From positions 1 to 9,891 of the IMG/VR virus record IMGVR_UViG_2627853730_000001: a stretch of 9,891 bases of DNA; one strand, written 5' to 3'. Both the position numbers and the translations under genes were made by a program. This DNA is from a virus (taxonomy: Duplodnaviria > Heunggongvirae > Uroviricota > Caudoviricetes). Positions 1-9,891 of this stretch are shown here, one piece after another (the stretch's first letter is position 1; every line of letters begins with the position of its first letter). The notes beneath the pieces were generated by a model that made no database searches, was not told the origin of the DNA, and saw only the letters and a program-made list of their open reading frames with translations.

Positions 1-1
1 G

Positions 2-235
2 CTGGAGATCACGCTCGGTCAGTTAACGGTTGAGTTCGAAACTGATGGGTGGTTTGCTCTGACGGGTGCCGGTTGCGAAGCGCGGCTGGATGATAATGCC
101 GTCTGGACCGGCTGGCGATTGCCGATGAAAGCAGGCCAGCGTTTAACGCTTAAACGCCCGCAGCACGGGATGCGCAGTTATCTGGTGGTCGCGGGTGGTA
201 TTGATGTTCCGCCGGTAATGGGGTCATGCATGTAA
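2..235 (+). pseudogene. pxpC: Interrupted host gene fragment, PxpC/YbgK-like (5-oxoprolinase subunit C / allophanate hydrolase subunit 2 family). It has no start in the window and its frame ends at a stop inside the prophage end.
   Basis: The + strand frame beginning at nt 2 is open to TAA 233-235 and translates LEITLGQLTVEFETDGWFALTGAGCEARLDDNAVWTGWRLPMKAGQRLTLKRPQHGMRSYLVVAGGIDVPPVMGSCM*. The ...SYLxVAGGIDV... region matches my recollection of the enterobacterial PxpC/YbgK mid-protein region, so the expected downstream part is missing. The following sequence is AT-rich with phage-end repeats. Identification is from memory, not a search. Confidence 0.5.
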
Positions 236-236
236 C

Positions 237-406
237 CAGGTGAATCATTTGATACCGACAAGGGTTTTAGTGAAAGGAGGTGAAATCACCTGTAAGATGC
301 TGAAATAAAACAGGTGATGTATACTTCGGACGGAAAACTCTTTTTGATACCGACTGCTCAACAAATAGTCAAAAGATCAAAAAACGGCGACACATTTGAT
401 ACTGCT
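237..406 (+). repeat. attL-like sub-terminal repeat array, presumed transposase end-binding sites (L1-L3 analogues).
   Basis: Three direct copies of the core TTTGATAC(C/T)G: CATTTGATACCGAC at 246-259, TTTTTGATACCGACTGCT at 343-360, CATTTGATACTGCT at 393-406. Three CAGGTGA motifs: 237-243, 311-317 and, inverted, inside the AGGTGA-AA-TCACCT inverted repeat at 278-291. The first copy resembles the MuA site consensus TGNTTCAYTNNAARYRCGAAAR only loosely. Confidence 0.6.
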
Positions 407-586
407 AATTTACCCTTAAAATCTTCTTCAAAACATCTTCAAACTGCCAAAATGCTCACATAATCGATCTAACTATAATCAGTATGATAATCATCATGAA
501 TTACTATTCAATAGCGTGATTATCTTGGGATGAGTCATATGATCTCTATATGTATTTACAGCACCACCTCATGATAGCGATGGCGC

Positions 587-1198
587 TTAACCAACAACAT
601 TTTTCTTTACTGTCACTGCCCCTGATTCCTGGGTGGCGTTATTGCTCGAGTTGTACTTCTCAATAACGCGCAAAATCTCTTTGTCTGTTTCTTCACTTCC
701 CGCCATTCCTATCTTTATTGCATTTTTTAGTACGGGACGTAATGGCAAGGCATCAATGATGCTTTCTACCGCATCCTGGCTGATTGTAGATGTATTCATT
801 GCTGCCAGCCTGACAAGGTTGTTAGTACCTTCTCGCCTGATGAATGTAAGGATTAATTGCTTCTCTTGGGGGCTTAGAGAGCTAAGCGCCTGATCAATAC
901 CCGAACCTGAATCGCAATTTTTTCCGATTTTTCCGCATTCATCTTCGTTCTTGCCTGTGGCCAACCAGTCGAGTGAACAATTACAGGCTTTAGCTATTAA
1001 GGCCAGTTTATCCAAAGGAGGGAAGTTTTTCCCCTTCCTGTAATTTCTTACTGTGGCTTCAGATAGTCCACAAAGGGTCGCCAGTTCGACGTTTGTCATG
1101 TTTCCCATAGCCATAGCTAAGCGTTCTGAAAATCGGTTTATTCCTTCCATATCAATAAACCGTTCCGCACTGGATACGGTTTTTTCTGCCTTATCCAT
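587..1198 (-). CDS. Prophage lysogeny repressor (functional analogue of Mu c) with an XRE/lambda-cI-type helix-turn-helix; 203 aa.
   Basis: Leftward ORF divergent from ner across the operator, in the position of Mu c. Residues ~34-80 (MTNVELATLCGLSEATVRNYRKGKNFPPLDKLALIAKACNCSLDWLATG) fit the HTH_XRE pattern. GGGGG Shine-Dalgarno lies upstream of ATG (complement of 1196-1198). I see no obvious S24 peptidase motif in the C-terminal part. Confidence 0.75.
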   Translation of the reverse strand: MDKAEKTVSSAERFIDMEGINRFSERLAMAMGNMTNVELATLCGLSEATVRNYRKGKNFPPLDKLALIAKACNCSLDWLATGKNEDECGKIGKNCDSGSGIDQALSSLSPQEKQLILTFIRREGTNNLVRLAAMNTSTISQDAVESIIDALPLRPVLKNAIKIGMAGSEETDKEILRVIEKYNSSNNATQESGAVTVKKNVVG

Positions 1199-1354
1199 AT
1201 AACCCCCTATAAAACAAAGAAATTATCGACATCGCATTTAATTTCGATATGCTCGCAAAAAACCGTTGATATCGAATTATTTTGCGATTATGATTTACCT
1301 AAATCGATAACCGGTTTTGATTATCGGTTCAGGTAAACATGAGAGGATCACACA
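1199..1354. promoter_or_regulatory. Operator and divergent promoter region between repressor and ner; by position also the likely transposition enhancer (internal activation sequence).
   Basis: A 156-bp AT-rich intergenic region holds at least six copies of a (T)ATCGA/TATCG core (tatcgac, atcgca, ttcgatat, gatatcgaa, atcgataa, ttatcgg), including the palindrome GATATC and the inverted pair ATCGATAACCGG/CCGGTTTTGATTATCGG. It sits about 1 kb from the left end, as Mu O1-O3 do. Confidence 0.6.
1266..1294 (+). promoter_or_regulatory. Candidate early promoter (Pe analogue) driving ner-A-B and downstream genes.
   Basis: -35 TTGATA (1266-1271), 17-bp spacer, -10 TATGAT (1289-1294); both hexamers are 5/6 matches to the sigma70 consensus. 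The -35 overlaps the GATATC operator repeat. ner ATG is at 1355 with GAGAGGA Shine-Dalgarno at 1341-1347. Confidence 0.5.
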
Positions 1355-1621
1355 ATGAGGGTATCCAGACAAGCATCGAATAATTTGTTTGTTCGAGAGG
1401 GGTGTGACTGGTCTGCTAAAGCGGTATATGCAGCCCTTGAAAACAAAGGCACAGACCTCCCTGAACTGGAAAGGGAGTTAGGATTAAAAAGCGGATCAAT
1501 GCGCAATGTGTTTTACCGCCAGTGCCGTAAATACGAAGCCGCCATCGCCGAAAAAATAGGGGTTGAACCTGCTGTAATCTGGCCCAGCAGATACCAGGTG
1601 GACGCCAGAGAAGTGGCTTGA
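1355..1621 (+). CDS. ner: Ner-like DNA-binding protein (Mu Ner / Nlp-Sfs7 family), negative regulator of early transcription; 88 aa.
   Basis: Translation contains DWSAKAVYAAL and the C-terminal AVIWPSRYQ, matching the Mu Ner / E. coli Nlp signature (DWHxADIIAGL ... EVIWPSRYQ). First rightward gene after the operator, with a good Shine-Dalgarno. Confidence 0.85.
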   Translation: MRVSRQASNNLFVREGCDWSAKAVYAALENKGTDLPELERELGLKSGSMRNVFYRQCRKYEAAIAEKIGVEPAVIWPSRYQVDAREVA

Positions 1622-1631
1622 TGGGGGATGT

Positions 1632-3722
1632 ATGTGGGTAACAGCAAAAGAATGTGTTGGTCTTCCTGATTTACCAATGATGGAACATAACATTCGCCAT
1701 CGACTCACAAAAGCAGCTGCGGGAAATGCAGCCATGTTACGCAAACGTAAGGGGACAAAAGCAATCGAATTTAATATCGATTGTTTGCCTTCTGGCGCGC
1801 AACAAGTATTGCGTGAACGTTATGCCCTTCAACTGATGACGCAAAAAGCTGATGAATCACCGGCTCCGGTGGTGACAAAGGCCAGACGCTCATCTGCCGT
1901 GGTTGATGCGGTGGAGGCATATCGCGGATCACCACAACTGATGCTCGAACGCCTCAATGCCCTGACTGAAAACCAGCGCCAGGTGGCTGATGCACGAATC
2001 GCGATCGTCAGCGAAGTTCTGAAAGTCGCGCAACAACCTGGTTTCAGCTGTGCGAAGGCTATCCGGTTTATCGTTGACAACCTGGCACGTTCGCAACTGG
2101 ACGAGCGCATTGTGGCAATGGTTGAGACGGCGAACGCCAAAAAGGGAAACAGCCGTGCGTTGAGTGAAATCACGCTGAAACGCTGGATTGCGGCCTTTAA
2201 CAAGGCACAGAACGCCGCTGAACGCCTGCTTTTACTGGCACCGGGTAAACGCCAGGAAATAAAAGCCGAAGATATTAACTGGCTGCCCGAATTTCTGGCG
2301 CAGTATCGCCAGTCAAACGGCCGACCAATGACCGAGGCTTACGAGGATTTTGTTGCTGAATGGCAGCACCGGCACGCTGATGAGCCTTATATGCTCGATA
2401 TCATGCCCTCTTATGACACCATTCGCCGCGCAATGAAGAAACTGCCGGAAGTGGTGAAACAAAAAGGCCGGGTAACTGGCAGTGAATACCGTCAGCTTGA
2501 GGGATTCACGCGCCGCGACTGGTCCAGAATGCCGGTGAATTATGTCTGGATTGGTGACGGTCACGGCATGAAGCTGAAATGCGCGCACCCGGTTCACGGG
2601 CGGCCATTCGCACCGGAAGTGACCTTTGTTATCGACGGTGGCACGCGCTTTGTGGTGGGCTGGAGCCTTGACCTGGCTGAAAATGTTTTCGCCGTAGCCG
2701 GTGCCATACAGCACGGTATTCGCCATCATGGCAAACCGTTTCTGTATTACTCGGATAATGGCTCCGGGGAAACCGCCGACGTCCTGGATAAGGAGATTGT
2801 GGGGATACTGCCACGACTGGGGATTAATCACCCGACAGGGATTGCCGGTAATCCGCAGGGACGGGGCATTATCGAACGGCTTAACCGCACATTACCGATG
2901 CGCATAGCCCGTAAATACCGCACCTATTTCGGGAAAGGAGCAGATCGCGAGACGTTACGTAAAACCAACCGCGATTTACGCTCGGCATTCAGTGCCCTGC
3001 AACAGGGCAAACGGCTGAACGCCCGGCAGCAGTCAGCGATGCGTGATTTACCGTCCTGGTCTGAACTGATTGATGCCATTCGTGACGGTGTTGAGTGGTA
3101 CAACAACCGGCCGCACGATGAATTACCCATGAAGCCGAACGGTAAACATTACAGCCCGGCGGAGTTCAGAAAAAAACGCCTGGCGGAAGAGGACACGGAA
3201 ATTGAATGGCTGTCCGATGTTGAACTGCGGGATATGTTCCGGCCGATGGTGGAGCGCCCTGTAAGACGCTGTGAAATACGCTGGCTGAATAATATTTACT
3301 ACGCGCCCGAGCTGCGTGACGAGCATGGCCGTAAGGTACTTATCAGCTATGACATTCATGATGCCGAACGAATTACCGTGCGCCGCCCGGATGGCAGCGT
3401 GATTTGCGAGGCGGTATGGGACGGCAATAAACGCGAAGCCTTCCCTGTCAGCGCGGAATACTACAAACAGCAGCAGCGCCTTAAAGGCATGCGTAAACGC
3501 GCAGAGGAAAAAATCCGTGATGCCGAGGATGAGGTTGTCAACGTGCTGGAGCACAAGCCGCAGGAGCCCTGGCTGGAAAACATATACCGCCCTGTGGGTA
3601 ATACGGTGACCGTTCAGCAACCGGTCGCTGACGATGAACCTGATGAAGAATACGAGCGTAATTTCCAGCGGGGATTGCAACTGCTCGAAGCGAAATTAAA
3701 AGAAAGTGATCCGCTGGCCTGA
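1632..3722 (+). CDS. A: Mu-type DDE transposase A (MuA-like), 696 aa.
   Basis: N-terminus MWVTAKECVGLPDLP resembles MuA MELWVSPKECANLPGLP (enhancer/operator-binding domain). DDE catalytic triad contexts are present: WIGDGHGMK, YYSDNGSGE, GRGIIERLNRT. Size and position (immediately after ner) fit. GGGGG Shine-Dalgarno lies 4 nt upstream of ATG 1632. Confidence 0.9.
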   Translation: MWVTAKECVGLPDLPMMEHNIRHRLTKAAAGNAAMLRKRKGTKAIEFNIDCLPSGAQQVLRERYALQLMTQKADESPAPVVTKARRSSAVVDAVEAYRGSPQLMLERLNALTENQRQVADARIAIVSEVLKVAQQPGFSCAKAIRFIVDNLARSQLDERIVAMVETANAKKGNSRALSEITLKRWIAAFNKAQNAAERLLLLAPGKRQEIKAEDINWLPEFLAQYRQSNGRPMTEAYEDFVAEWQHRHADEPYMLDIMPSYDTIRRAMKKLPEVVKQKGRVTGSEYRQLEGFTRRDWSRMPVNYVWIGDGHGMKLKCAHPVHGRPFAPEVTFVIDGGTRFVVGWSLDLAENVFAVAGAIQHGIRHHGKPFLYYSDNGSGETADVLDKEIVGILPRLGINHPTGIAGNPQGRGIIERLNRTLPMRIARKYRTYFGKGADRETLRKTNRDLRSAFSALQQGKRLNARQQSAMRDLPSWSELIDAIRDGVEWYNNRPHDELPMKPNGKHYSPAEFRKKRLAEEDTEIEWLSDVELRDMFRPMVERPVRRCEIRWLNNIYYAPELRDEHGRKVLISYDIHDAERITVRRPDGSVICEAVWDGNKREAFPVSAEYYKQQQRLKGMRKRAEEKIRDAEDEVVNVLEHKPQEPWLENIYRPVGNTVTVQQPVADDEPDEEYERNFQRGLQLLEAKLKESDPLA

Positions 3723-3804
3723 AATAAAAAAATAACCCGAGGGGTGACTCAGGTTATTTGAGGTTTCAGTCTCGGAGAATGCTGTCTCAAGCGAGGTGAA
3801 TAAT

Positions 3805-4737
3805 ATGACCGATATTAACGATGTAATCAAGACCATTGATGAACTTATTGATGGCGGCGTACTGACGCAGTATGCCATCGCCAGAGAGGCGGGAATTTCC
3901 GACGGCACATTATCGGCTTTCCGTAAGGGAAAATATAAAGGCGATAACGCTGCTGTGGCTGCTTCCCTGCGCTCCTGGTATGAGAACTGGAATAAACAAA
4001 GCGCACTGCCGGAACCGCCGCAGTTTGTGGAAACTCAGACAGTCCAGGAGCTGCGCGCACTGTTTCAGGCGGTTCGCCTGATGGGCTGTATTAACGTTAT
4101 TGTGGGCGTACCGGGTGTGGGTAAAACGGCCACTGCCCGTAATTACTGCCAGGAGCAACCAAACACCTGGATGATCACCCTGTCACCCGCGCACTCCAGC
4201 GTCACGGAGTGTCTGCTGGAGCTGGCCGATGCGCTGGGGATTGATTACACCCGCGCGAACAAAGGGGCATTATCCCGCGCCATCCGCCGTCGCCTGACGG
4301 GAACGCGTGGACTGGTGATTGTGGATGAGGCGGATCATCTTGGTATTGACGGTCTGGAGCAACTCCGGGCAATTCAGGACGCCACGGGGATCGGGATGGT
4401 GCTTATTGGTAACCCGCGCGGATTGTTTAAAGGTGGACGCCGCGCCTTTGATGATTTATCGCGCCTGTTCAGCCGTCTTGCCCGTACAAAACAACTTCGC
4501 AAGGCCAAAAAGGCGGATGTGCTGGCCATTGCCAGGGCATGGGGTATCAGTGGTGAGGCCGAGCTGGCCGTCATGCAGGCTATCGCTGAAAAGCCGGGAG
4601 CATTACGTGTTCTGACACATACGCTTAACCAGGCGTGGCTCACCGCCAGCGGTGAAGGCGCGGCGCTGACAGAAAAACATATTAATGCGGCCTTTAAAGA
4701 GGTTTATACCAACCCTGAATTACTCTCACAGGTGTGA
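3805..4737 (+). CDS. B: Mu B-like AAA+ ATPase, target-DNA activator of transposition; about 310 aa. Alternative GTG start at 3796.
   Basis: Walker A GVPGVGKT and Walker B LVIVDEADHL are present. N-terminal region ...GISDGTLSAFRKGKYKGDNAAV... parallels MuB ...FINDKYNGDNERV.... Length is close to MuB (312 aa). ATG 3805 is preceded by GAGGTG (3793-3798) at 6-nt spacing. Confidence 0.85.
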   Translation: MTDINDVIKTIDELIDGGVLTQYAIAREAGISDGTLSAFRKGKYKGDNAAVAASLRSWYENWNKQSALPEPPQFVETQTVQELRALFQAVRLMGCINVIVGVPGVGKTATARNYCQEQPNTWMITLSPAHSSVTECLLELADALGIDYTRANKGALSRAIRRRLTGTRGLVIVDEADHLGIDGLEQLRAIQDATGIGMVLIGNPRGLFKGGRRAFDDLSRLFSRLARTKQLRKAKKADVLAIARAWGISGEAELAVMQAIAEKPGALRVLTHTLNQAWLTASGEGAALTEKHINAAFKEVYTNPELLSQV

Positions 4738-4739
4738 TT

Positions 4740-4961
4740 ATGGCGGTATTTAATATTCCTGATATTTACGGACGCTTTTACCTGGTTAATTTCGATAACG
4801 TGAAGGTGATTTCACTGGCCGAAAATAAAGCATGTGGCGATTTACTTTTTGAATTTAATGACCGCACACGAATGGTGATATCTGCCGGACTTGATCGCGA
4901 AGGTGCGACAGAAGTTTACAGCGGAATATGCCGTTCTGTTGGTGCGAAACAAGTCAGCTAA
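4740..4961 (+). CDS. Small early protein, 73 aa, in the position occupied by kil in Mu (positional analogy only).
   Basis: ORF starts 3 nt after the B stop with AGGTG 6 nt upstream of ATG 4740 (the six-frame track gives a GTG at 4734). Size matches my recollection of Mu Kil (~74 aa), but I recognise no sequence similarity. Confidence 0.5.
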   Translation: MAVFNIPDIYGRFYLVNFDNVKVISLAENKACGDLLFEFNDRTRMVISAGLDREGATEVYSGICRSVGAKQVS

Positions 4962-5228
4962 ATGAGGTGTTATATGAATATGCAATCCTGCGGTAACAAA
5001 ATGAATTTATTCGACTCCCTGAACAGCGCGCGCCGTCTGACCGAACTTGCCGGTGCGGTACTGGAACGCAGTAAGCGCTATCCGCAACGTTTTGCACTGA
5101 AAACCACGCCGCCGGTAGGCAACGTGCAGGGAACCGGTGAAATTGAAATCACCATACAGACCAACGGCCTGCGCCGCCGTGTGAAGGCCACCCGCATCAG
5201 CGGCTGCACGGTTTACTGGGAGGTGTGA
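4962..5228 (+). CDS. Hypothetical small early protein, 84-88 aa; start ambiguous between ATG 4962, 4974 and 4980.
   Basis: Open frame abuts the stop of the previous gene (TAA 4959-4961, ATG 4962). GAGGTG at 4965-4970 would best serve ATG 4980. Tightly packed in a co-directional operon. Confidence 0.5.
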   Translation: MRCYMNMQSCGNKMNLFDSLNSARRLTELAGAVLERSKRYPQRFALKTTPPVGNVQGTGEIEITIQTNGLRRRVKATRISGCTVYWEV

Positions 5229-5229
5229 G

Positions 5230-5511
5230 GTGAAAAAAAATCTCATTGCATGGGCGTGGTCGAGTGGTCTTATTGAGTTTGGTTACGTCCTGCCGGAAGG
5301 TGCATTGCCGATAGTTGCCGGAAAGCCCGCCACGGTACGGCATGTGATTGATGTTGTGGCGCGTCATGGACGCGATGAACAGGAACAGCTACTGGTTCCT
5401 GGAATACCGGAAGCGGTGACGGAAGAAGAAGCCTTTAATGCCATGGTTCAGTTCTGCCGTGAGGTCAGACGCCGGGTCAGTTATCCAAACAGAACGAGGG
5501 CCAGAGGATGA
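5230..5511 (+). CDS. Hypothetical early protein, 93 aa.
   Basis: GTG 5230 is preceded by GGGAGG (5218-5223) at 6-nt spacing and lies 1 nt after the upstream stop. The 3' end overlaps the next start in an ATGA junction (5508-5511). Confidence 0.55.
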   Translation: MKKNLIAWAWSSGLIEFGYVLPEGALPIVAGKPATVRHVIDVVARHGRDEQEQLLVPGIPEAVTEEEAFNAMVQFCREVRRRVSYPNRTRARG

Positions 5512-5780
5512 GTAAAGTCGTGCGCATTATTTTCGAATACAAGGAGGACGTTATCCGTAAAAACGCTGATGGAACAGTGCACATGGGGGTAAGTCTGGAT
5601 ATACGTTCAACCGGAATAAAGCAGAAAAATGATAGCCCCGCCATGATTTTTGGGGTGGTTATGCTGGCAGAAAGCAGAAACTTCGCAGAGCTTGTGGCAA
5701 TGAAAGCCAGTGCATTCATGAAAGACAGGGGCATGGCTTCCGGGGTTATTAACGGTAATGAATTTAATCAGCAGGGGTAA
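5508..5780 (+). CDS. Hypothetical early protein, 90 aa; paralogue 1 of a tandem pair.
   Basis: ATGA overlap with the upstream gene. N-terminus MSKVVRIIFEY is shared with the next gene, and the first ~35 nt are near-identical to the start of 5786-6078. Confidence 0.6.
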   Translation: MSKVVRIIFEYKEDVIRKNADGTVHMGVSLDIRSTGIKQKNDSPAMIFGVVMLAESRNFAELVAMKASAFMKDRGMASGVINGNEFNQQG

Positions 5781-5785
5781 TTCCA

Positions 5786-6078
5786 TGAGCAAAGTACGCG
5801 TTATTTTTGAATTTGAGCATGTTTCGCATGACGAAAAACCGGCAGGCAATGACAGTGTTGAAGTGCATGAAAAGATTGGTGTGGATGTAAAAACAGAACG
5901 TGATACGGATAACAGGCCGACGTCACTCTGTGACGTTTATGCAAGTATTCTCCAGTATCACAGTCCTGAAATTATTCAGTTTCTCTCAGCGGAATTTCAG
6001 GCATCTGTACAGGCTTTTGGGGCGGATGCCATCATTAAACGCCACCGCGTGCATAAAGCATCAGGCACACTGCAATAA
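5786..6078 (+). CDS. Hypothetical early protein, 97 aa; paralogue 2 of a tandem pair.
   Basis: I prefer ATG 5786 (CAGGGG Shine-Dalgarno at 5773-5777) over the track's 5758 start because it gives N-terminus MSKVRVIFEF, parallel to the upstream paralogue. A C-terminal segment (QFLSAEFQASVQAFG) weakly resembles ELVAMKASAFMKDRG in paralogue 1. Confidence 0.6.
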
Positions 6079-6089
6079 GGAAAAACAAA

Positions 6090-6620
6090 ATGGCTAAACG
6101 CGTTACAAAATTAAAGGCCGCAGCCGAGGCAGCACCGCAGACCCGTGAAGAGGTCAGCCGCGATATCCGACGCTTTGGGGATATGCAGCGTGAGGCACTA
6201 CGCCTGGAAACGGCGATGAATGACGAAGTGGCAGAAATCACCGCCCGTTATACGCCGCAGATTGAAAACCTTAAAAAAGAAATCAAAGTGCTTTTTAAGG
6301 GGATTCATGACTGGTGTAAAACCAACCGCAATGAGCTGACGAACGGCGGCGAAACCAAAACAGCCAATCTGACCACCGGAACGGTGTCATGGCGGCTGGG
6401 AACGCCATCATGCAGCGTCAGCCGTGATGTGGAAGGCGTGATTGAAATGCTGCGCCGTATGGGCCTTGAGCGCTTCATCCGCACGAAAGAGGAAGTGAAT
6501 AAGCAAGCTGTCCTGGCGGAGCCAGATGCGGTGAAGGGCATTGCCGGTATAAAGGTGAATAAAGGCGCTGAAAGTTTTTATGTCGAGCCTTTTGAACAGG
6601 ACGCCGGACTGAATAAATAA
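6090..6620 (+). CDS. gam: Gam-like host-nuclease inhibitor (Mu Gam family, Ku-like DNA-end-binding protein), 176 aa.
   Basis: Translation matches my recollection of Mu Gam along its length: GDMQREALRLETAMNDEVAEIT, ELTNGGETKTANLTTGTVSWR, ERFIRTKEEVNKQAVLAEP. Size and position in the early region fit. Confidence 0.8.
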   Translation: MAKRVTKLKAAAEAAPQTREEVSRDIRRFGDMQREALRLETAMNDEVAEITARYTPQIENLKKEIKVLFKGIHDWCKTNRNELTNGGETKTANLTTGTVSWRLGTPSCSVSRDVEGVIEMLRRMGLERFIRTKEEVNKQAVLAEPDAVKGIAGIKVNKGAESFYVEPFEQDAGLNK

Positions 6621-6717
6621 CACCGCATTAAATCTTTAAATATCACATCGTGTTAATTATGGCGCTCGCGTCAGGGGACTGCCTGCGCCTGTAAACTGAA
6701 AATAAGGAACAGGAAAT

Positions 6718-7260
6718 ATGGCATATTTTTATTTCAAATTAGACATAGTGTACACAAATAAATATTTAACCGAATATCAGCGGGATGTTTTACCGCTACG
6801 CAACAGTATTCTTCGGGCATTACTGAAAAATACAGGCGCTGCCGGATTGCGCTTAAAGCCGTTCGCCATGGACGTAATCAGTGAGTTTTATTTTTCTGGT
6901 TCTCTGCCTGCGGGCTGGCGTAAGCGCGATGATGTGGCTTTTATCGGGGACGGACCGTGCTTTATTGCCAGACCTGATGAGTCATGCCCTGAAGGTCCGG
7001 CGATTGCCGCAATGATTGAAACCGCTGAACGTGAGTTAAGAAAGCGTCCTGATTTCCTTGTCTGGCTCTGTGAAAAGCTGGGGGTAATGAGAATCCCCTC
7101 CATGTTTAACACGGACTCCTGGTGGACCCCGTCGCTCTCCCGTGATGCCCTGTGCGTGGTGTTTAAAGTAGGCGCTTATGGCAGGGAAATAAAAGGGGGT
7201 ATTCCTGAAGAATGCCAGGAAATTAAACATTCTGAATATGTGGCGCTGACGGAGGAATAA
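6718..7260 (+). CDS. Hypothetical protein, 180 aa, no family recognised; first gene after the only sizeable intergenic gap of the early region.
   Basis: Strong AGGAACAGGA Shine-Dalgarno before ATG 6718. The 5' ~80 nt are AT-rich. The frame is open for 180 codons with no competing ORF. Confidence 0.65.
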   Translation: MAYFYFKLDIVYTNKYLTEYQRDVLPLRNSILRALLKNTGAAGLRLKPFAMDVISEFYFSGSLPAGWRKRDDVAFIGDGPCFIARPDESCPEGPAIAAMIETAERELRKRPDFLVWLCEKLGVMRIPSMFNTDSWWTPSLSRDALCVVFKVGAYGREIKGGIPEECQEIKHSEYVALTEE

Positions 7261-7263
7261 TTC

Positions 7264-7797
7264 ATGATTGATGCAAAAGTGCTTGAAGGGGTTAAAAGCT
7301 GGCTGCGTTTTTCTGGCCGTCTGACCAGTCGTTCTCTGGCAGAAAAAATGAATATGCCGCTATCCTCCATGGTTTATTTTCTGCGTGATGCGGTCGATGC
7401 CGGGGTGCTGACGGACCGTAACGGTTTTTATGATATTCCGCGTCCCCGCCCGGTGCAGGCGGTTCGTCGCAAATGCAGCCAGGAAGGTGCGGCTGATGAT
7501 GTTCAGTGGTGCAGCTTCAGAAAATCCCTGCCGTGGATTGAGGGGCATGATATTCCGTCGATGGCGTGGGAATTTGCTCAGGGAGTACTGACCTGCGAAA
7601 CCGTTTATGTGGTGGCTGAAGTTGATGAGCAGGCCATGAAAGAAGGCGTGCCCCAGTTTGTGATGGCGTATATCGACATTCGCCTGGGCGTCATTATCTG
7701 CGGCTTAAGCGGCTGGAACATCACCGGGCGCGTTCTGCGTTACCTGATTATTGACCGGACAGCGGCATCGGCAGGGATATCTGCGGAGGTGGCGTAA
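7264..7797 (+). CDS. Hypothetical protein, 177 aa, with a possible N-terminal winged-helix/HTH-like segment.
   Basis: GGAGGA Shine-Dalgarno at 7251-7256, 7 nt before ATG 7264. N-terminal RLTSRSLAEKMNMPLSSMVYFLRDAVDAGVL looks like a DNA-binding helix-turn-helix/wing, but this is a by-eye judgement. The stop overlaps the next start (TAATG at 7795-7799). Confidence 0.6.
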   Translation: MIDAKVLEGVKSWLRFSGRLTSRSLAEKMNMPLSSMVYFLRDAVDAGVLTDRNGFYDIPRPRPVQAVRRKCSQEGAADDVQWCSFRKSLPWIEGHDIPSMAWEFAQGVLTCETVYVVAEVDEQAMKEGVPQFVMAYIDIRLGVIICGLSGWNITGRVLRYLIIDRTAASAGISAEVA

Positions 7798-8312
7798 TGT
7801 TCTTTAAAACATCAAACCCTTCCGCGCTGGCTGCGTGGCAAAAATACCAGCAGGACTGCCAGAAAGTTAAGGATGAGGCAAAACGCCTTGAGGCCGTGCT
7901 GAATGTTGCGTGCCGGTCGGTATTTGTATCCGGTATCAGTGGATTTTGCTTTAAGGGACTGCGTTTTACGGAGGACAAATATCCTTTTCATCGCGACTTA
8001 TGGCGAAAACCGACTGCGTCGAATGGCTGGAGCTGCACACCGCGCACATCACGTATCCCTAAAACCCTGCGTGTTGCCTCTGATGAACTGAACAGTCTGT
8101 GGCGTGAATATTCGCCCGTCACGTATGCCAGAACCGATGCGCTGTTGTTCTGGCTGGGTATTGATTTCTCGGCAATCCTGTTTGGCCCTGTGAAGTGGTT
8201 CTGCGTTGACGATGTGATTTACCTTCAGTGCGGCGTAAAACCCGCAAAACAGAAAATGACCGAAATACTGTCTGATGAGTTTTATGCTGCTGAAAAGCGA
8301 GTCAGGGGGTGA
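7797..8312 (+). CDS. Hypothetical protein, 171 aa, no family recognised.
   Basis: Translationally coupled to the upstream gene (TAATG overlap) with GGAGGTGG upstream. Long open frame in the operon direction. Confidence 0.6.
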   Translation: MFFKTSNPSALAAWQKYQQDCQKVKDEAKRLEAVLNVACRSVFVSGISGFCFKGLRFTEDKYPFHRDLWRKPTASNGWSCTPRTSRIPKTLRVASDELNSLWREYSPVTYARTDALLFWLGIDFSAILFGPVKWFCVDDVIYLQCGVKPAKQKMTEILSDEFYAAEKRVRG

Positions 8313-8315
8313 TGC

Positions 8316-8867
8316 ATGATGAAATTACAACCCATGGGACTAAAAGGTCGCGCCCCCGCTCATGTCCGTCCGTGGACACCTGAAGAAGATGCGCTGCTGA
8401 TTGCGCTTTATTCATCCACCCCGGTTAAGGATATTGCTGCCAGAATAAAAAGAACTGTCTGGGCTGTATATAACCGGACTGGTGTATTGCGCAGTTCATA
8501 CCCGGAGTTACTGAAATATAAACACCCAAGATTTACACCTGATGAAGATAAGTTTATTCGAAAAAATGCCAGAACAATGACCTGCCAGCAAATGGGAGAA
8601 TATCTCGGACGTAATAAAGATTCTGTCAGATGTCGGGCAGGAATGATTGGTGCTGGATTAACAAAGTGCGGAGAGTTACGCCCCGGCACGCGCATATCTG
8701 ATGATGATGTACGTCTTATACGTGCGCTGCGTGATTCCGATTACCCACGCCGTCTGTCATTCCGGGAAATTGGCGAAAAGTTTGGAATATCTGAACATTC
8801 TGCTCACGCAGTTTATTACCGTCGCCGGACTGCCGAGGACGCTGTATTACGGGAGTTAACGCCATGA
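8316..8867 (+). CDS. Putative DNA-binding protein with three internal Myb/SANT-like or HTH-like repeats, 183 aa.
   Basis: Three ~45-aa segments begin WTPEEDALLIALY..., FTPDEDKFIRKNA..., ISDDDVRLIRALR...; the third ends in an HTH-like RRLSFREIGEKFGISEHSAHAVYYRR. AGGGGGTG Shine-Dalgarno precedes ATG 8316. ATGA overlap with the next gene at 8864-8867. Confidence 0.6.
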   Translation: MMKLQPMGLKGRAPAHVRPWTPEEDALLIALYSSTPVKDIAARIKRTVWAVYNRTGVLRSSYPELLKYKHPRFTPDEDKFIRKNARTMTCQQMGEYLGRNKDSVRCRAGMIGAGLTKCGELRPGTRISDDDVRLIRALRDSDYPRRLSFREIGEKFGISEHSAHAVYYRRRTAEDAVLRELTP

Positions 8868-9196
8868 TAACGACCTTATTTGTTGAATCAGATGAACCTC
8901 TTGTGTGTGCCGCCGGAATGCCGCTCTGTGGCGGAACGCTGACCGGCGTTTATTTCGGGGATTTGCGCGGTTATCCCTGGCATTCACTGGATGACGCATT
9001 TCCGCCTGATATGGAGGCTGTCGTGCTGATTGTTCAGTATGGTGACCAACAGGAACTGCGCATCGGCCATATGGGGTATGAAGGCTTTTTTATTGATGAA
9101 GAAACCGGAGCCTGCCTTGAAGATGAGGACGGACAGGTGACGCACTGGTGCCATCTTTCGGCCTTGCCGGAATTACAGGGGATACATAATGGATGA
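8864..9196 (+). CDS. DUF551-like phage protein, 110 aa.
   Basis: The C-terminal two thirds (PWHSLDDAFPPDMEAVVLIVQYG...GYEGFFIDEETG...VTHWCHLSALPE) fit the DUF551 pattern as I recall it (W-S-D-LP ... VL ... THW-LP-PE). GGGAG Shine-Dalgarno and ATGA coupling at the start. Confidence 0.55.
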   Translation: MITTLFVESDEPLVCAAGMPLCGGTLTGVYFGDLRGYPWHSLDDAFPPDMEAVVLIVQYGDQQELRIGHMGYEGFFIDEETGACLEDEDGQVTHWCHLSALPELQGIHNG

Positions 9197-9332
9197 GCAA
9201 ATTGTTGAATGTCCCACCTGTGGAAATGAGGACCCGGAGTATCTGAAAGAGTGCCCACATTGTGGTGAGATAAAATGTAACCACTGCGATATGGGCGACG
9301 ACACTGCATGTATAAATTGTGAGGATGAATAA
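9189..9332 (+). CDS. Small zinc-ribbon protein, 47 aa, with four CxxC motifs; not in the six-frame track because it is under 60 aa.
   Basis: ATG 9189 overlaps the upstream stop (ATGGATGA) with AGGGG 8 nt upstream. Translation MDEQIVECPTCGNEDPEYLKECPHCGEIKCNHCDMGDDTACINCEDE contains CPTC, CPHC, CNHC, CINC. It fills the gap between flanking genes, and its stop (9330-9332) is followed 1 nt later by the next start. Confidence 0.55.
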   Translation: MDEQIVECPTCGNEDPEYLKECPHCGEIKCNHCDMGDDTACINCEDE

Positions 9333-9333
9333 T

Positions 9334-9621
9334 ATGGAAAAAGAAATCAAATTTGCGCCTAAATCTATCGACGAAGAACTGGCTAAAATCGGCATGCTTG
9401 AACGTATGCGGGACATTATCGAATATGCGATAAAAGAAAATCTTGCAGCCAGAGAAGCCCTTTTGATAATGGAGCGGGAGATTAACCTGATTAAGGATGC
9501 TGTATCTCTGGATAATAAAATAGCCCGCGAGGAATACGTTCGCCGCAGGCTCGGTGTTGATGGTTCAGCAATTCTTACATCTGAACATTATGCAAAAATT
9601 TTTAATCTTTTTCAGCGGTAA
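9334..9621 (+). CDS. Hypothetical charged, probably helical protein, 95 aa, in an AT-rich segment.
   Basis: ATG 9334 is preceded by GAGGA (9321-9325) at 8-nt spacing; the track's longer ORF starts at GTG 9319. Sequence is rich in E/K/R/I/L. Nucleotide composition is visibly more AT-rich than the upstream operon. Confidence 0.5.
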   Translation: MEKEIKFAPKSIDEELAKIGMLERMRDIIEYAIKENLAAREALLIMEREINLIKDAVSLDNKIAREEYVRRRLGVDGSAILTSEHYAKIFNLFQR

Positions 9622-9841
9622 TCCCCATACAGGCCCGGAGATTGTCGAAATGCCAGTCGGTATTAATATATGAGCCATCCTGGATATCTTCTGTATTTTC
9701 CGGGGTAGAGTTTTTTTGAGCGAGATTGATAATATGTATTGCCTCCTCACGGGAAATCAGCCCCTTATCGAACAGGGTTACCATAAGATTTCCAGCCATT
9801 GTGAATGCGGCAACATCAAGTGCATTTTTTATATCTGACAT
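9602..9841 (-). CDS. Hypothetical protein, 79 aa, on the minus strand, convergent with and overlapping the 3' end of the 9334-9621 gene by 20 nt.
   Basis: Minus-strand ATG (complement of 9839-9841) is preceded by AAAGGAAAAA as a ribosome-binding site. It is the only substantial minus-strand ORF in the rightward early region that is not a shadow of a stronger plus-strand gene. AT-rich composition. Confidence 0.45.
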   Translation of the reverse strand: MSDIKNALDVAAFTMAGNLMVTLFDKGLISREEAIHIINLAQKNSTPENTEDIQDGSYINTDWHFDNLRACMGITAEKD

Positions 9842-9854
9842 AGATTTTTCCTTT

Positions 9855-9889
9855 TATGTTAATTGACATGGCGGTGCGGTAACACCGCC
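9855..9889. promoter_or_regulatory. Palindromic elements upstream of the minus-strand gene: near-palindrome ATGTTAATTGACAT and hairpin GGCGGTG-CGGTAA-CACCGCC; candidate operator or promoter region.
   Basis: Perfect 7-bp inverted repeat with a 6-nt loop at 9870-9889 and a near-palindrome at 9855-9868. They lie immediately 5' of the minus-strand start. There is no U-tract on either strand, so not a typical intrinsic terminator. The window ends at 9891, so context is incomplete. Confidence 0.3.
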
Positions 9890-9891
9890 CA

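Follow-up and report, generated by a model that had tools for sequence, protein, structure and literature searches.

The 9,891 nucleotides of viral DNA analyzed here, which we call the window (positions 1 to 9,891 of IMG/VR virus record IMGVR_UViG_2627853730_000001), hold the left end of a Mu-like transposable prophage of Escherichia coli, one of the Sp18-like group, with its lysogeny switch, or early-control region. Judged by its domain matches, the lysogenic repressor of this switch is a two-domain chimera, in which a lambda/P22-type XRE head is joined to a C-terminal domain (C-domain) specific to the repressors of transposable phages. The best explanation that we can offer for the region combines this chimeric repressor with three predicted operators, O1 to O3, a separate palindrome for the early protein Ner, and Mu-like proteolysis as the means by which the repressor is inactivated, and we put the probability of this explanation as a whole at about 0.65.

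An earlier note, made from the letters of the window, had described an immunity region of mixed ancestry. The mixture is real, and it extends into the repressor itself, but it is less unusual than the note implied, because the D3112-like phages are mixed as well and XRE heads are found on E. coli relatives of Mu. It is ordinary mosaicism of the immunity module, and lambda-type repressors in Mu-like phages have already been published (PMC8541194). What is new is a domain combination within known phage mosaicism and not a new kind of system. In the searchable literature, outside which the key reviews of transposable phages lie, we found no description of an XRE head on a peptidase-free transposable-phage C-domain or of the two-by-two shuffling of heads and C-domains set out below.

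Domain composition of the repressor

The repressor gene (587 to 1198, minus strand) encodes 203 residues. From the N terminus, the protein consists of the XRE head (residues ~22–87, bases 938–1135), a variable linker (residues 88–96), the helical C-domain (residues 97–191, bases 626–910), and a disordered tail that ends in KKNVVG (bases 590–625). The head matches the Pfam families Phage_CI_repr and HTH_3 at residues 25–85, and its fold matches that of P22 c2, a five-helix XRE domain of the P22 c2/434 kind. The winged helix of the Mu repressor, PF02316 (HTH_Tnp_Mu_1), was not among the Pfam matches of the protein. The C-domain is all-helical, with five helices, and the C-terminal half gave no Pfam match even at E ≤ 1, PF00717 (Peptidase_S24) included; the repressor of phage JBD88a, our positive control, matched Peptidase_S24 with E 8.6e-22. 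Two readings of the earlier note, that the head is of the XRE/cI type and not a Mu winged helix and that the protein carries no S24 autopeptidase, are borne out by these searches. In its placement the gene is that of a Mu-type c repressor, being leftmost, divergent from ner-A-B, about 200 residues long, and without a peptidase domain. Of the two features of lambda CI/LexA-type repressors, it has the XRE head and lacks the S24 autocleavage domain.

Relatives of the locus were collected as nine loci encoding repressor homologues that are 41–73% identical to the window protein, from Salmonella, E. coli, Providencia, Morganella, and one public sequencing-run assembly. They were obtained by exact-protein look-ups; a scan of representative genomes gave 3 distant loci only. 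The repressor, ner, and transposase genes stand in the same context in all nine, and in the family alignment the C-domain is conserved far better than the head.

The distribution of the two domains is what marks the repressor as a chimera. A profile of the C-domain found only 46 cluster representatives among 1.84 billion proteins, and when 33 of these were scanned with Pfam, HTH_3 was present in 18 and the Mu winged helix HTH_Tnp_Mu_1 in 5. In the homologue P0045 this C-domain carries an unrelated helix-turn-helix, and the spacer and Ner of its locus differ as well. The Salmonella repressor P0075 joins a head of the Mu type (E 4.8e-13; 32% identity with Mu c) to a C-domain that is 54% identical to that of the window repressor (E 8e-25), and this head shares 55% identity with the N-terminal domain (N-domain) of the transposase of its own phage, L016; P0090 is another winged-helix repressor that shares the C-domain. 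A search with Mu c as the query found P0073, the representative of 342 clustered sequences, in which an XRE head that shares 43% identity with the window head is joined to a genuine Mu c C-domain (53% identical to that of Mu c). Its phage, L017 from E. coli, has 92–95% nucleotide identity to Mu outside Mu positions 459–1528, and the module that stands there instead comprises the XRE head, new operators with TGCGCA repeats, another ner, and another version of the first ~67 transposase codons. Thus, there are two head types and two C-domain types, and all four combinations of them occur.

Early promoter, predicted operators, and the probable Ner palindrome

The repressor gene and ner are separated by a spacer of 156 bp (1199–1354). 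It contains the early promoter (Pe; 1266 to 1294, plus strand), with TTGATA at 1266–1271 and TATGAT at 1289–1294 on either side of a 17-bp gap. As the earlier note had it, this is a near-consensus promoter, agreeing at 10 of 12 positions; it is also the best sigma-70 match of the region, and its TTG and TA..T elements lie in the same place in the relatives. The note had further read the spacer as an operator of at least six repeats. The repeats are real: the spacer holds eight ATCG/CGAT tetramers, versus a mean of 1.15 over all 156-nucleotide segments of the sequence, and a count of eight is reached only by segments that overlap 1199–1354 (shuffle P about 1e-4). TATCGA occurs 13 times in the window, with 3.9 expected, and four of these copies are in the spacer. 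It is the single operator that does not hold, since the repeats, as far as pattern and conservation tell, are of two classes, putative repressor palindromes and a palindrome close to ner.

In the first class, ATCG-N10-CGAT occurs four times in the window (at 911, 1231, 1271, and 1764; 0.21 expected), and the centers are AT-rich in all four. The sites are palindromes of 16–18 bp with the 16-bp core TCGNA-N6-TNCGA. O1 (ATCGAATTATTTTGCGAT, 1271–1288), the primary predicted repressor operator, fills the 17-bp gap of Pe, and O2 (ATCGCATTTAATTTCGAT, 1231–1248), also a predicted operator, lies 40 bp upstream of it. O3 (ATCGCAATTTTTTCCGAT, 911–928) is a distal operator-like palindrome 320 bp from O2, where the repressor gene encodes the linker, and O4 (ATCGAATTTAATATCGAT, 1764–1781) is a weak candidate within the coding sequence of the transposase N-domain.

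With at most one mismatch to TCGNA-N6-TNCGA, a site is present at the O1 place in six of the seven relatives that have a related XRE head, 82–83 bp before the ner ATG, or 95 bp before it in L008, where the spacer is longer. L009 has at this place a version with two mismatches, ATCGGATTATTGTTCCGT, which falls beyond the threshold. In the four diverged phages whose recognition helix reads (S/T)EAT(V/I)RNYRKG, the distance from O1 to O2 is exactly 40 bp, and the same four (the window, L004, L008, and L013) have O3 at the homologous position.

The decisive comparison is with L010. From 1259 rightwards it shares 95.6% identity with the window, and over 233–823 the identity is 85%; its repressor head, O2, and most of O1 have been replaced. 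This pattern identifies the immunity module as the head plus O1 and O2 and assigns the right-hand palindrome to Ner and the transposase. The predicted operators, then, change together with the repressor head.

We consider it possible, although doubtful, that only O1 and O2 are real operators and that O3 and O4, both of which are within coding DNA, are coincidental by-products of Ile, Asp, and Glu codons, which give ATC..GAT. For O4 this may well be so. It is kept in L004 with one change, but it also persists in L010, which has another repressor, and synonymous changes have removed it from L006, L008, L009, L011, and L013, so that we rejected it as a general operator. O3 fits this explanation less well. 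The linker in which it lies is the least conserved part of the protein, and 8–9 of its 9 pattern bases are kept through non-conservative replacements in the protein, with five of six residues changed (the residues encoded across it are IGKNCD, NEINCE, or NEIDFE), which argues for selection on the DNA. Moreover, its position is homologous in the four phages named above, and chance would supply only the 0.21 sites already mentioned in the whole window.

The best-supported reading is one in which Pe is repressed through O1 and O2 by an oligomer that the C-domain mediates, with O3 as a looping partner. By analogy, the repressor would bind the TCGNA-N6-TNCGA palindromes, and at O1 it would occupy the gap between the two elements of Pe. 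Oligomers held together by the C-domain may occupy O1 and O2 cooperatively, probably looping to O3 as well, and in doing so would shut off the early operon ner-A-B. For such looping there are precedents. Distal auxiliary operators are known in coliphage 186 (FL and FR), and in lambda the repressor loops between OL and OR.

Two other features touch on these sites. At 1226–1253 there is a second rightward promoter-like sequence, TCGACA-16-TATGCT, whose gap is exactly O2, mirroring the arrangement of Pe and O1 40 bp downstream; it is not conserved in L004, and we treat it as incidental. At 1134–1164, in codons ~12–22 of the repressor gene, an inverted repeat (CGGTTTATT...AATAAACCG) encodes RFI and INRF, and at this place the relatives of the other head type (L006, L010, L009, and L011) have exact 11–12-mers of the operator half-sites of their own spacers (ATCGGATTATTG, ACAATAAACCG). 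The repeat could be one more operator within the gene, or coding and operator sequence may coincide here by chance.

The second class of repeat is a 44-bp palindrome, TTTACCTAAATCGATAA-N10-TTATCGGTTCAGGTAAA (1294–1337), an inverted repeat that runs from the -10 element of Pe to about +40 and lies 18–61 nucleotides before the ner ATG. The ner homologue (1355 to 1621, plus strand, 88 residues; ribosome-binding site GAGAGGA at 1341–1347) matches HTH_35 (E 1.7e-20) and phrog_769 and is 38% identical to Mu Ner, and the Mu-type Ner that the earlier note placed beside the repressor is confirmed by these matches. The 61 bp at 1294–1354 show 1–3 differences among the window, L004, L006, and L010 (95–98% identical), in a comparison in which the flanking genes are 73–74% identical, and where the repressor head has been exchanged, they remain beside Ner and the transposase. 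The palindrome corresponds in position to the repeated CTAAGT-type motifs upstream of ner in Mu, which we take to be the Ner site of that phage. Linkage and position support it as the probable Ner operator. Ner, once made, would bind it and damp both Pe and the leftward promoter of the repressor, as in Mu.

Repressor inactivation and the place of the enhancer

The absence of an S24 domain excludes RecA-stimulated autocleavage as the way in which the repressor is inactivated. The last 12–15 residues are predicted to be disordered and close with a basic motif (VKKNVVG, KKSAS, KNKVG, or HQKVG) that is conserved and resembles VKKAV of Mu c. ClpXP degrades the repressor of Mu by way of a determinant at its C terminus (PMC10584840). 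Given the common architecture and the basic tail, Mu-like proteolysis is probably the route of inactivation here too, a conclusion that we hold with modest confidence; the repressor would then be removed by regulated proteolysis, through ClpXP or Lon, as is the Mu repressor. Inactivation could instead proceed through an antirepressor or through a small-molecule or temperature signal that acts on the helical C-domain, although this seems to us a less probable course. No antirepressor-like gene was recognized in the 9.9-kb window, and conservation of the basic motif behind a stretch that is variable and disordered is what one would expect of a degron.

A separate question is where the transposase acts within the control region. 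The gene (1632 to 3722, plus strand, 696 residues) encodes a MuA-like DDE transposase (Mu-transpos_C E 2.2e-17; 23% identical to MuA), in which residues 1–63 (bases 1632–1820) form an N-domain like the I-alpha domain. This part matches HTH_Tnp_Mu_1 with 24.7 bits, just above the cutoff of 23.3; residues 2–63 match the PHROG of Mu-c-type repressors (E 4.9e-6); residues 1–62 match the MuA enhancer-binding domain, PDB 1TNS (E 0.015); and the alignment with MuA starts at residue 1. Together, these results uphold the earlier claim of a MuA-like N terminus. Across the relatives the N-domain is 51–84% identical, versus 42–78% for the rest of the protein (51–57% where the rest is 42–43%, and 70–84% where it is 77–78%). 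A domain under such purifying selection probably still binds DNA.

An XRE head in the repressor and an I-alpha-type N-domain in the transposase leave the two proteins no homologous domains through which to share sites, as had been suggested in the earlier note, so that the same-site competition of Mu cannot apply as such. The window and L010 are informative here again, since their transposase N-domains and Ner proteins are 97% identical and their O1/O2 regions are different. The site of the N-domain is, for this reason, not O1/O2 as such; it must lie outside the swapped segment or tolerate the replacement of that segment. The ultraconserved stretch 1294–1354 is the best candidate for its location, and the palindrome there is a possible location of the enhancer. 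The N-domain is linked to ner and the right-hand part of the spacer in every recombinant seen (L010, L017, and L016), but adjacency alone could be sufficient to explain this linkage.

These observations would fit an arrangement in which the enhancer is wholly uncoupled from the lysogenic repressor. In it, the I-alpha-type domain would bind 1294–1354, Ner and not the repressor would compete with the transposase, the repressor would act purely on transcription through its P22-like operators and looping site, and the C-domain would be a portable module for oligomerization plus degradation to which any DNA-binding head could be fitted. We regard so complete a separation as unlikely. At the other extreme, the spacer might be one composite operator and enhancer, in which the XRE repressor and the N-domain read interleaved or overlapping (T)ATCGA repeats and the repressor blocks the enhancer sterically. 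Every repeat does have an ATCG/CGAT core, the enhancer of Mu coincides with O1–O2 of that phage (PMC3820752), and TTGATATCGAA at 1265–1276 resembles the end repeat of the prophage, TTTGATACCGAC, with 3 mismatches. Yet between the window and L010 such an enhancer would have been replaced under N-domains and Ner proteins that hardly differ, and conservation of the right-hand repeats does not depend on the type of repressor, which makes this arrangement improbable as well. It is no likelier that the N-domain has ceased to bind an enhancer, being structural or binding the ends or another protein, with transposition proceeding without an operator-linked enhancer: the HTH_Tnp_Mu_1 and 1TNS matches are marginal, and neither a repeated motif attributable to the N-domain nor a site for IHF was found, but the domain is conserved as much as or more than the catalytic remainder, down to 42% overall identity, and stays linked to the control region in recombinants.

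Several points weigh against the explanation that we prefer, namely the chimeric repressor acting at O1 to O3, the Ner palindrome, and Mu-like proteolysis. First, the operators are assigned by symmetry, position, and co-variation, and the group A and group B operators (window versus L010) differ at only 3 of 16 positions of O1, so that operator specificity is unproven; O4, as described above, fails as a general operator. Second, no leftward promoter for the repressor scored above 8 of 12 matches. The best candidate, TTTAGG-16-AATAAT (1303–1276, minus strand, 8 of 12), is a possible one: its -10 element is complementary to ATTATT, the conserved core of O1, its -35 element lies within the Ner palindrome, and the same sequence is found in the spacers of L004, L006, and L010. 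Third, the IHF consensus WATCAANNNNTTR is absent from the whole window, unlike in Mu. Fourth, Ner and the transposase N-domain occur together in every locus examined, and comparison cannot separate their sites. Fifth, the ClpXP assignment draws on just two features, the architecture and a tail of the KK-x-V/A type. Finally, the C-domain is not readily joined to that of Mu c: the E value was 2 in pairwise BLAST and 0.11 in hhalign of the two family alignments, and our own hidden Markov model comparison of the two was no better than 5200 shuffled controls. Mu c does match phrog_3037 (E 1e-4, residues 90–184), which mixed membership of that PHROG may explain.

The prophage and its place among known systems

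The window begins in a host gene fragment (1–230) with a Pfam CT_A_B carboxyltransferase domain (E 3.3e-24), a gene that the prophage interrupts. The left end of the prophage (attL, 231 to 410, plus strand) starts with 5'-TG at 231, and within it the end-binding repeat of the transposase, TTTGATACCGAC, occurs three times (248–259, 343–354, and 395–406, the third with 3 mismatches); matches at other insertion sites in E. coli begin at 225–231, and the right end and the target duplication are outside the window. The end repeats are kept in L004, L006, and L010, and more distant relatives have other repeats instead. Prophages ~97% identical are present in 36 complete E. coli genomes, with different flanking host genes in each, and are also inserted in Shiga toxin (Stx) phages. 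A 5'-TG end, several repeats, and many different insertion sites are what the end of a Mu-like element has. The name Sp18-like for these Mu-like phages is a published one, and their variable locations have been remarked upon (PMC10132054, PMC7430833). The immunity type of the window (830–1295) was found in 34 of 5426 complete E. coli genomes, always in one copy per genome. The phage backbone occurs in up to five places per genome, and a single immunity type among multiple backbones is the pattern that heteroimmune co-resident prophages would give.

From attL, the genes follow in the order repressor (minus strand), the 156-bp spacer, ner, transposase, MuB, kil, gam, and early genes of unknown function. 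The MuB-like AAA+ transposition protein (3796 to 4737, plus strand) matches Phage-MuB_C (E 2.5e-25), AAA_22, and phrog_296, and with it the Mu-like early set of Ner (HTH_35), DDE transposase with the Mu C-terminal domain, and MuB AAA+ protein with Phage-MuB_C is complete; Kil and Gam were identified in the window as well. We rejected as a gene an open reading frame at 314–463 (49 residues, GTG start), which lies within attL, has no family match, and is not conserved in the relatives. Farther right are two open reading frames without a Pfam match, one of 47 residues (9189–9332) that is cysteine-rich and zinc-ribbon-like (CPTCG..CPHCG..CNHC..CINC) and one of 79 residues (9602–9841, minus strand) antisense to the early operon.

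In general, Mu is the textbook case in which a DNA-binding domain shared by repressor and transposase makes repression of transcription and blocking of the enhancer one act. The natural set of two heads by two C-domains, sometimes on the same backbone, indicates that evolution repeatedly breaks this coupling while the transposase N-domain is kept under selection. The loci offer pairs that are close to isogenic, with which one could ask whether occlusion of the enhancer by the repressor has any weight in vivo, where the enhancer sits in phages whose heads differ, and whether the C-domain by itself decides the manner of induction. Sp18-like phages move by transposition within Shiga-toxin-producing E. 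coli and also enter Stx phages in this way, and the absence of S24 predicts that antibiotics that induce SOS do not induce Sp18-like phages directly.

Among known systems, Mu and D108 are the closest in plan. The window has the same left-end gene order and orientation, with Ner, a MuA-like transposase with an I-alpha-type N-domain, and MuB; a repressor of ~200 residues without S24, whose C-terminal half is helical and whose C-terminal tail is basic; and multiple operators, one of them over Pe, in an immunity module that is exchangeable as it is between Mu and D108. The differences lie in the head, which in the window is of the XRE type and in Mu and D108 is a winged helix shared with the transposase; in the operators, which are palindromes of 16–18 bp and not Mu-type repeats, with no IHF consensus; and in the competition between repressor and transposase through homologous domains, which in the window is impossible.

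The D3112-like Pseudomonas phages (Casadabanvirus, JBD88a) resemble the window in the head, which is of the XRE type and 44–46% identical to window residues 15–82, and JBD88a has its HTH_3 repressor next to a homologue of Ner and a transposase that matches HTH_Tnp_Mu_1. Their repressors, however, carry Peptidase_S24 where the window has the helical transposable-phage C-domain. Many Mu-like phages have lambda-type repressors of this helix-turn-helix plus S24 kind, which have been linked to induction by mitomycin C (PMC8541194). The N-domains of P22 c2 and 434, which the window head resembles, use palindromic operators of 14–18 bp, and the window C-domain is unrelated to S24 or to the C-domain of 186 CI.

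The nearest parallels to the chimera itself come from two of the loci described above. In L017, the phage of P0073, an XRE head likewise replaces the winged helix on the body of a Mu-type repressor, and the transposase keeps its I-alpha domain, but there the C-domain is Mu c's own, the backbone is true Mu, and the exchange takes in ner as well as ~67 codons at the start of A. In L015/L016, the Salmonella loci of P0075, the backbone is that of the window (the transposase has 73% nucleotide identity from window position 2203) and the C-domain is 54% identical, but the Mu winged-helix head, 55% identical to the phage's own transposase N-domain, gives the canonical Mu arrangement.

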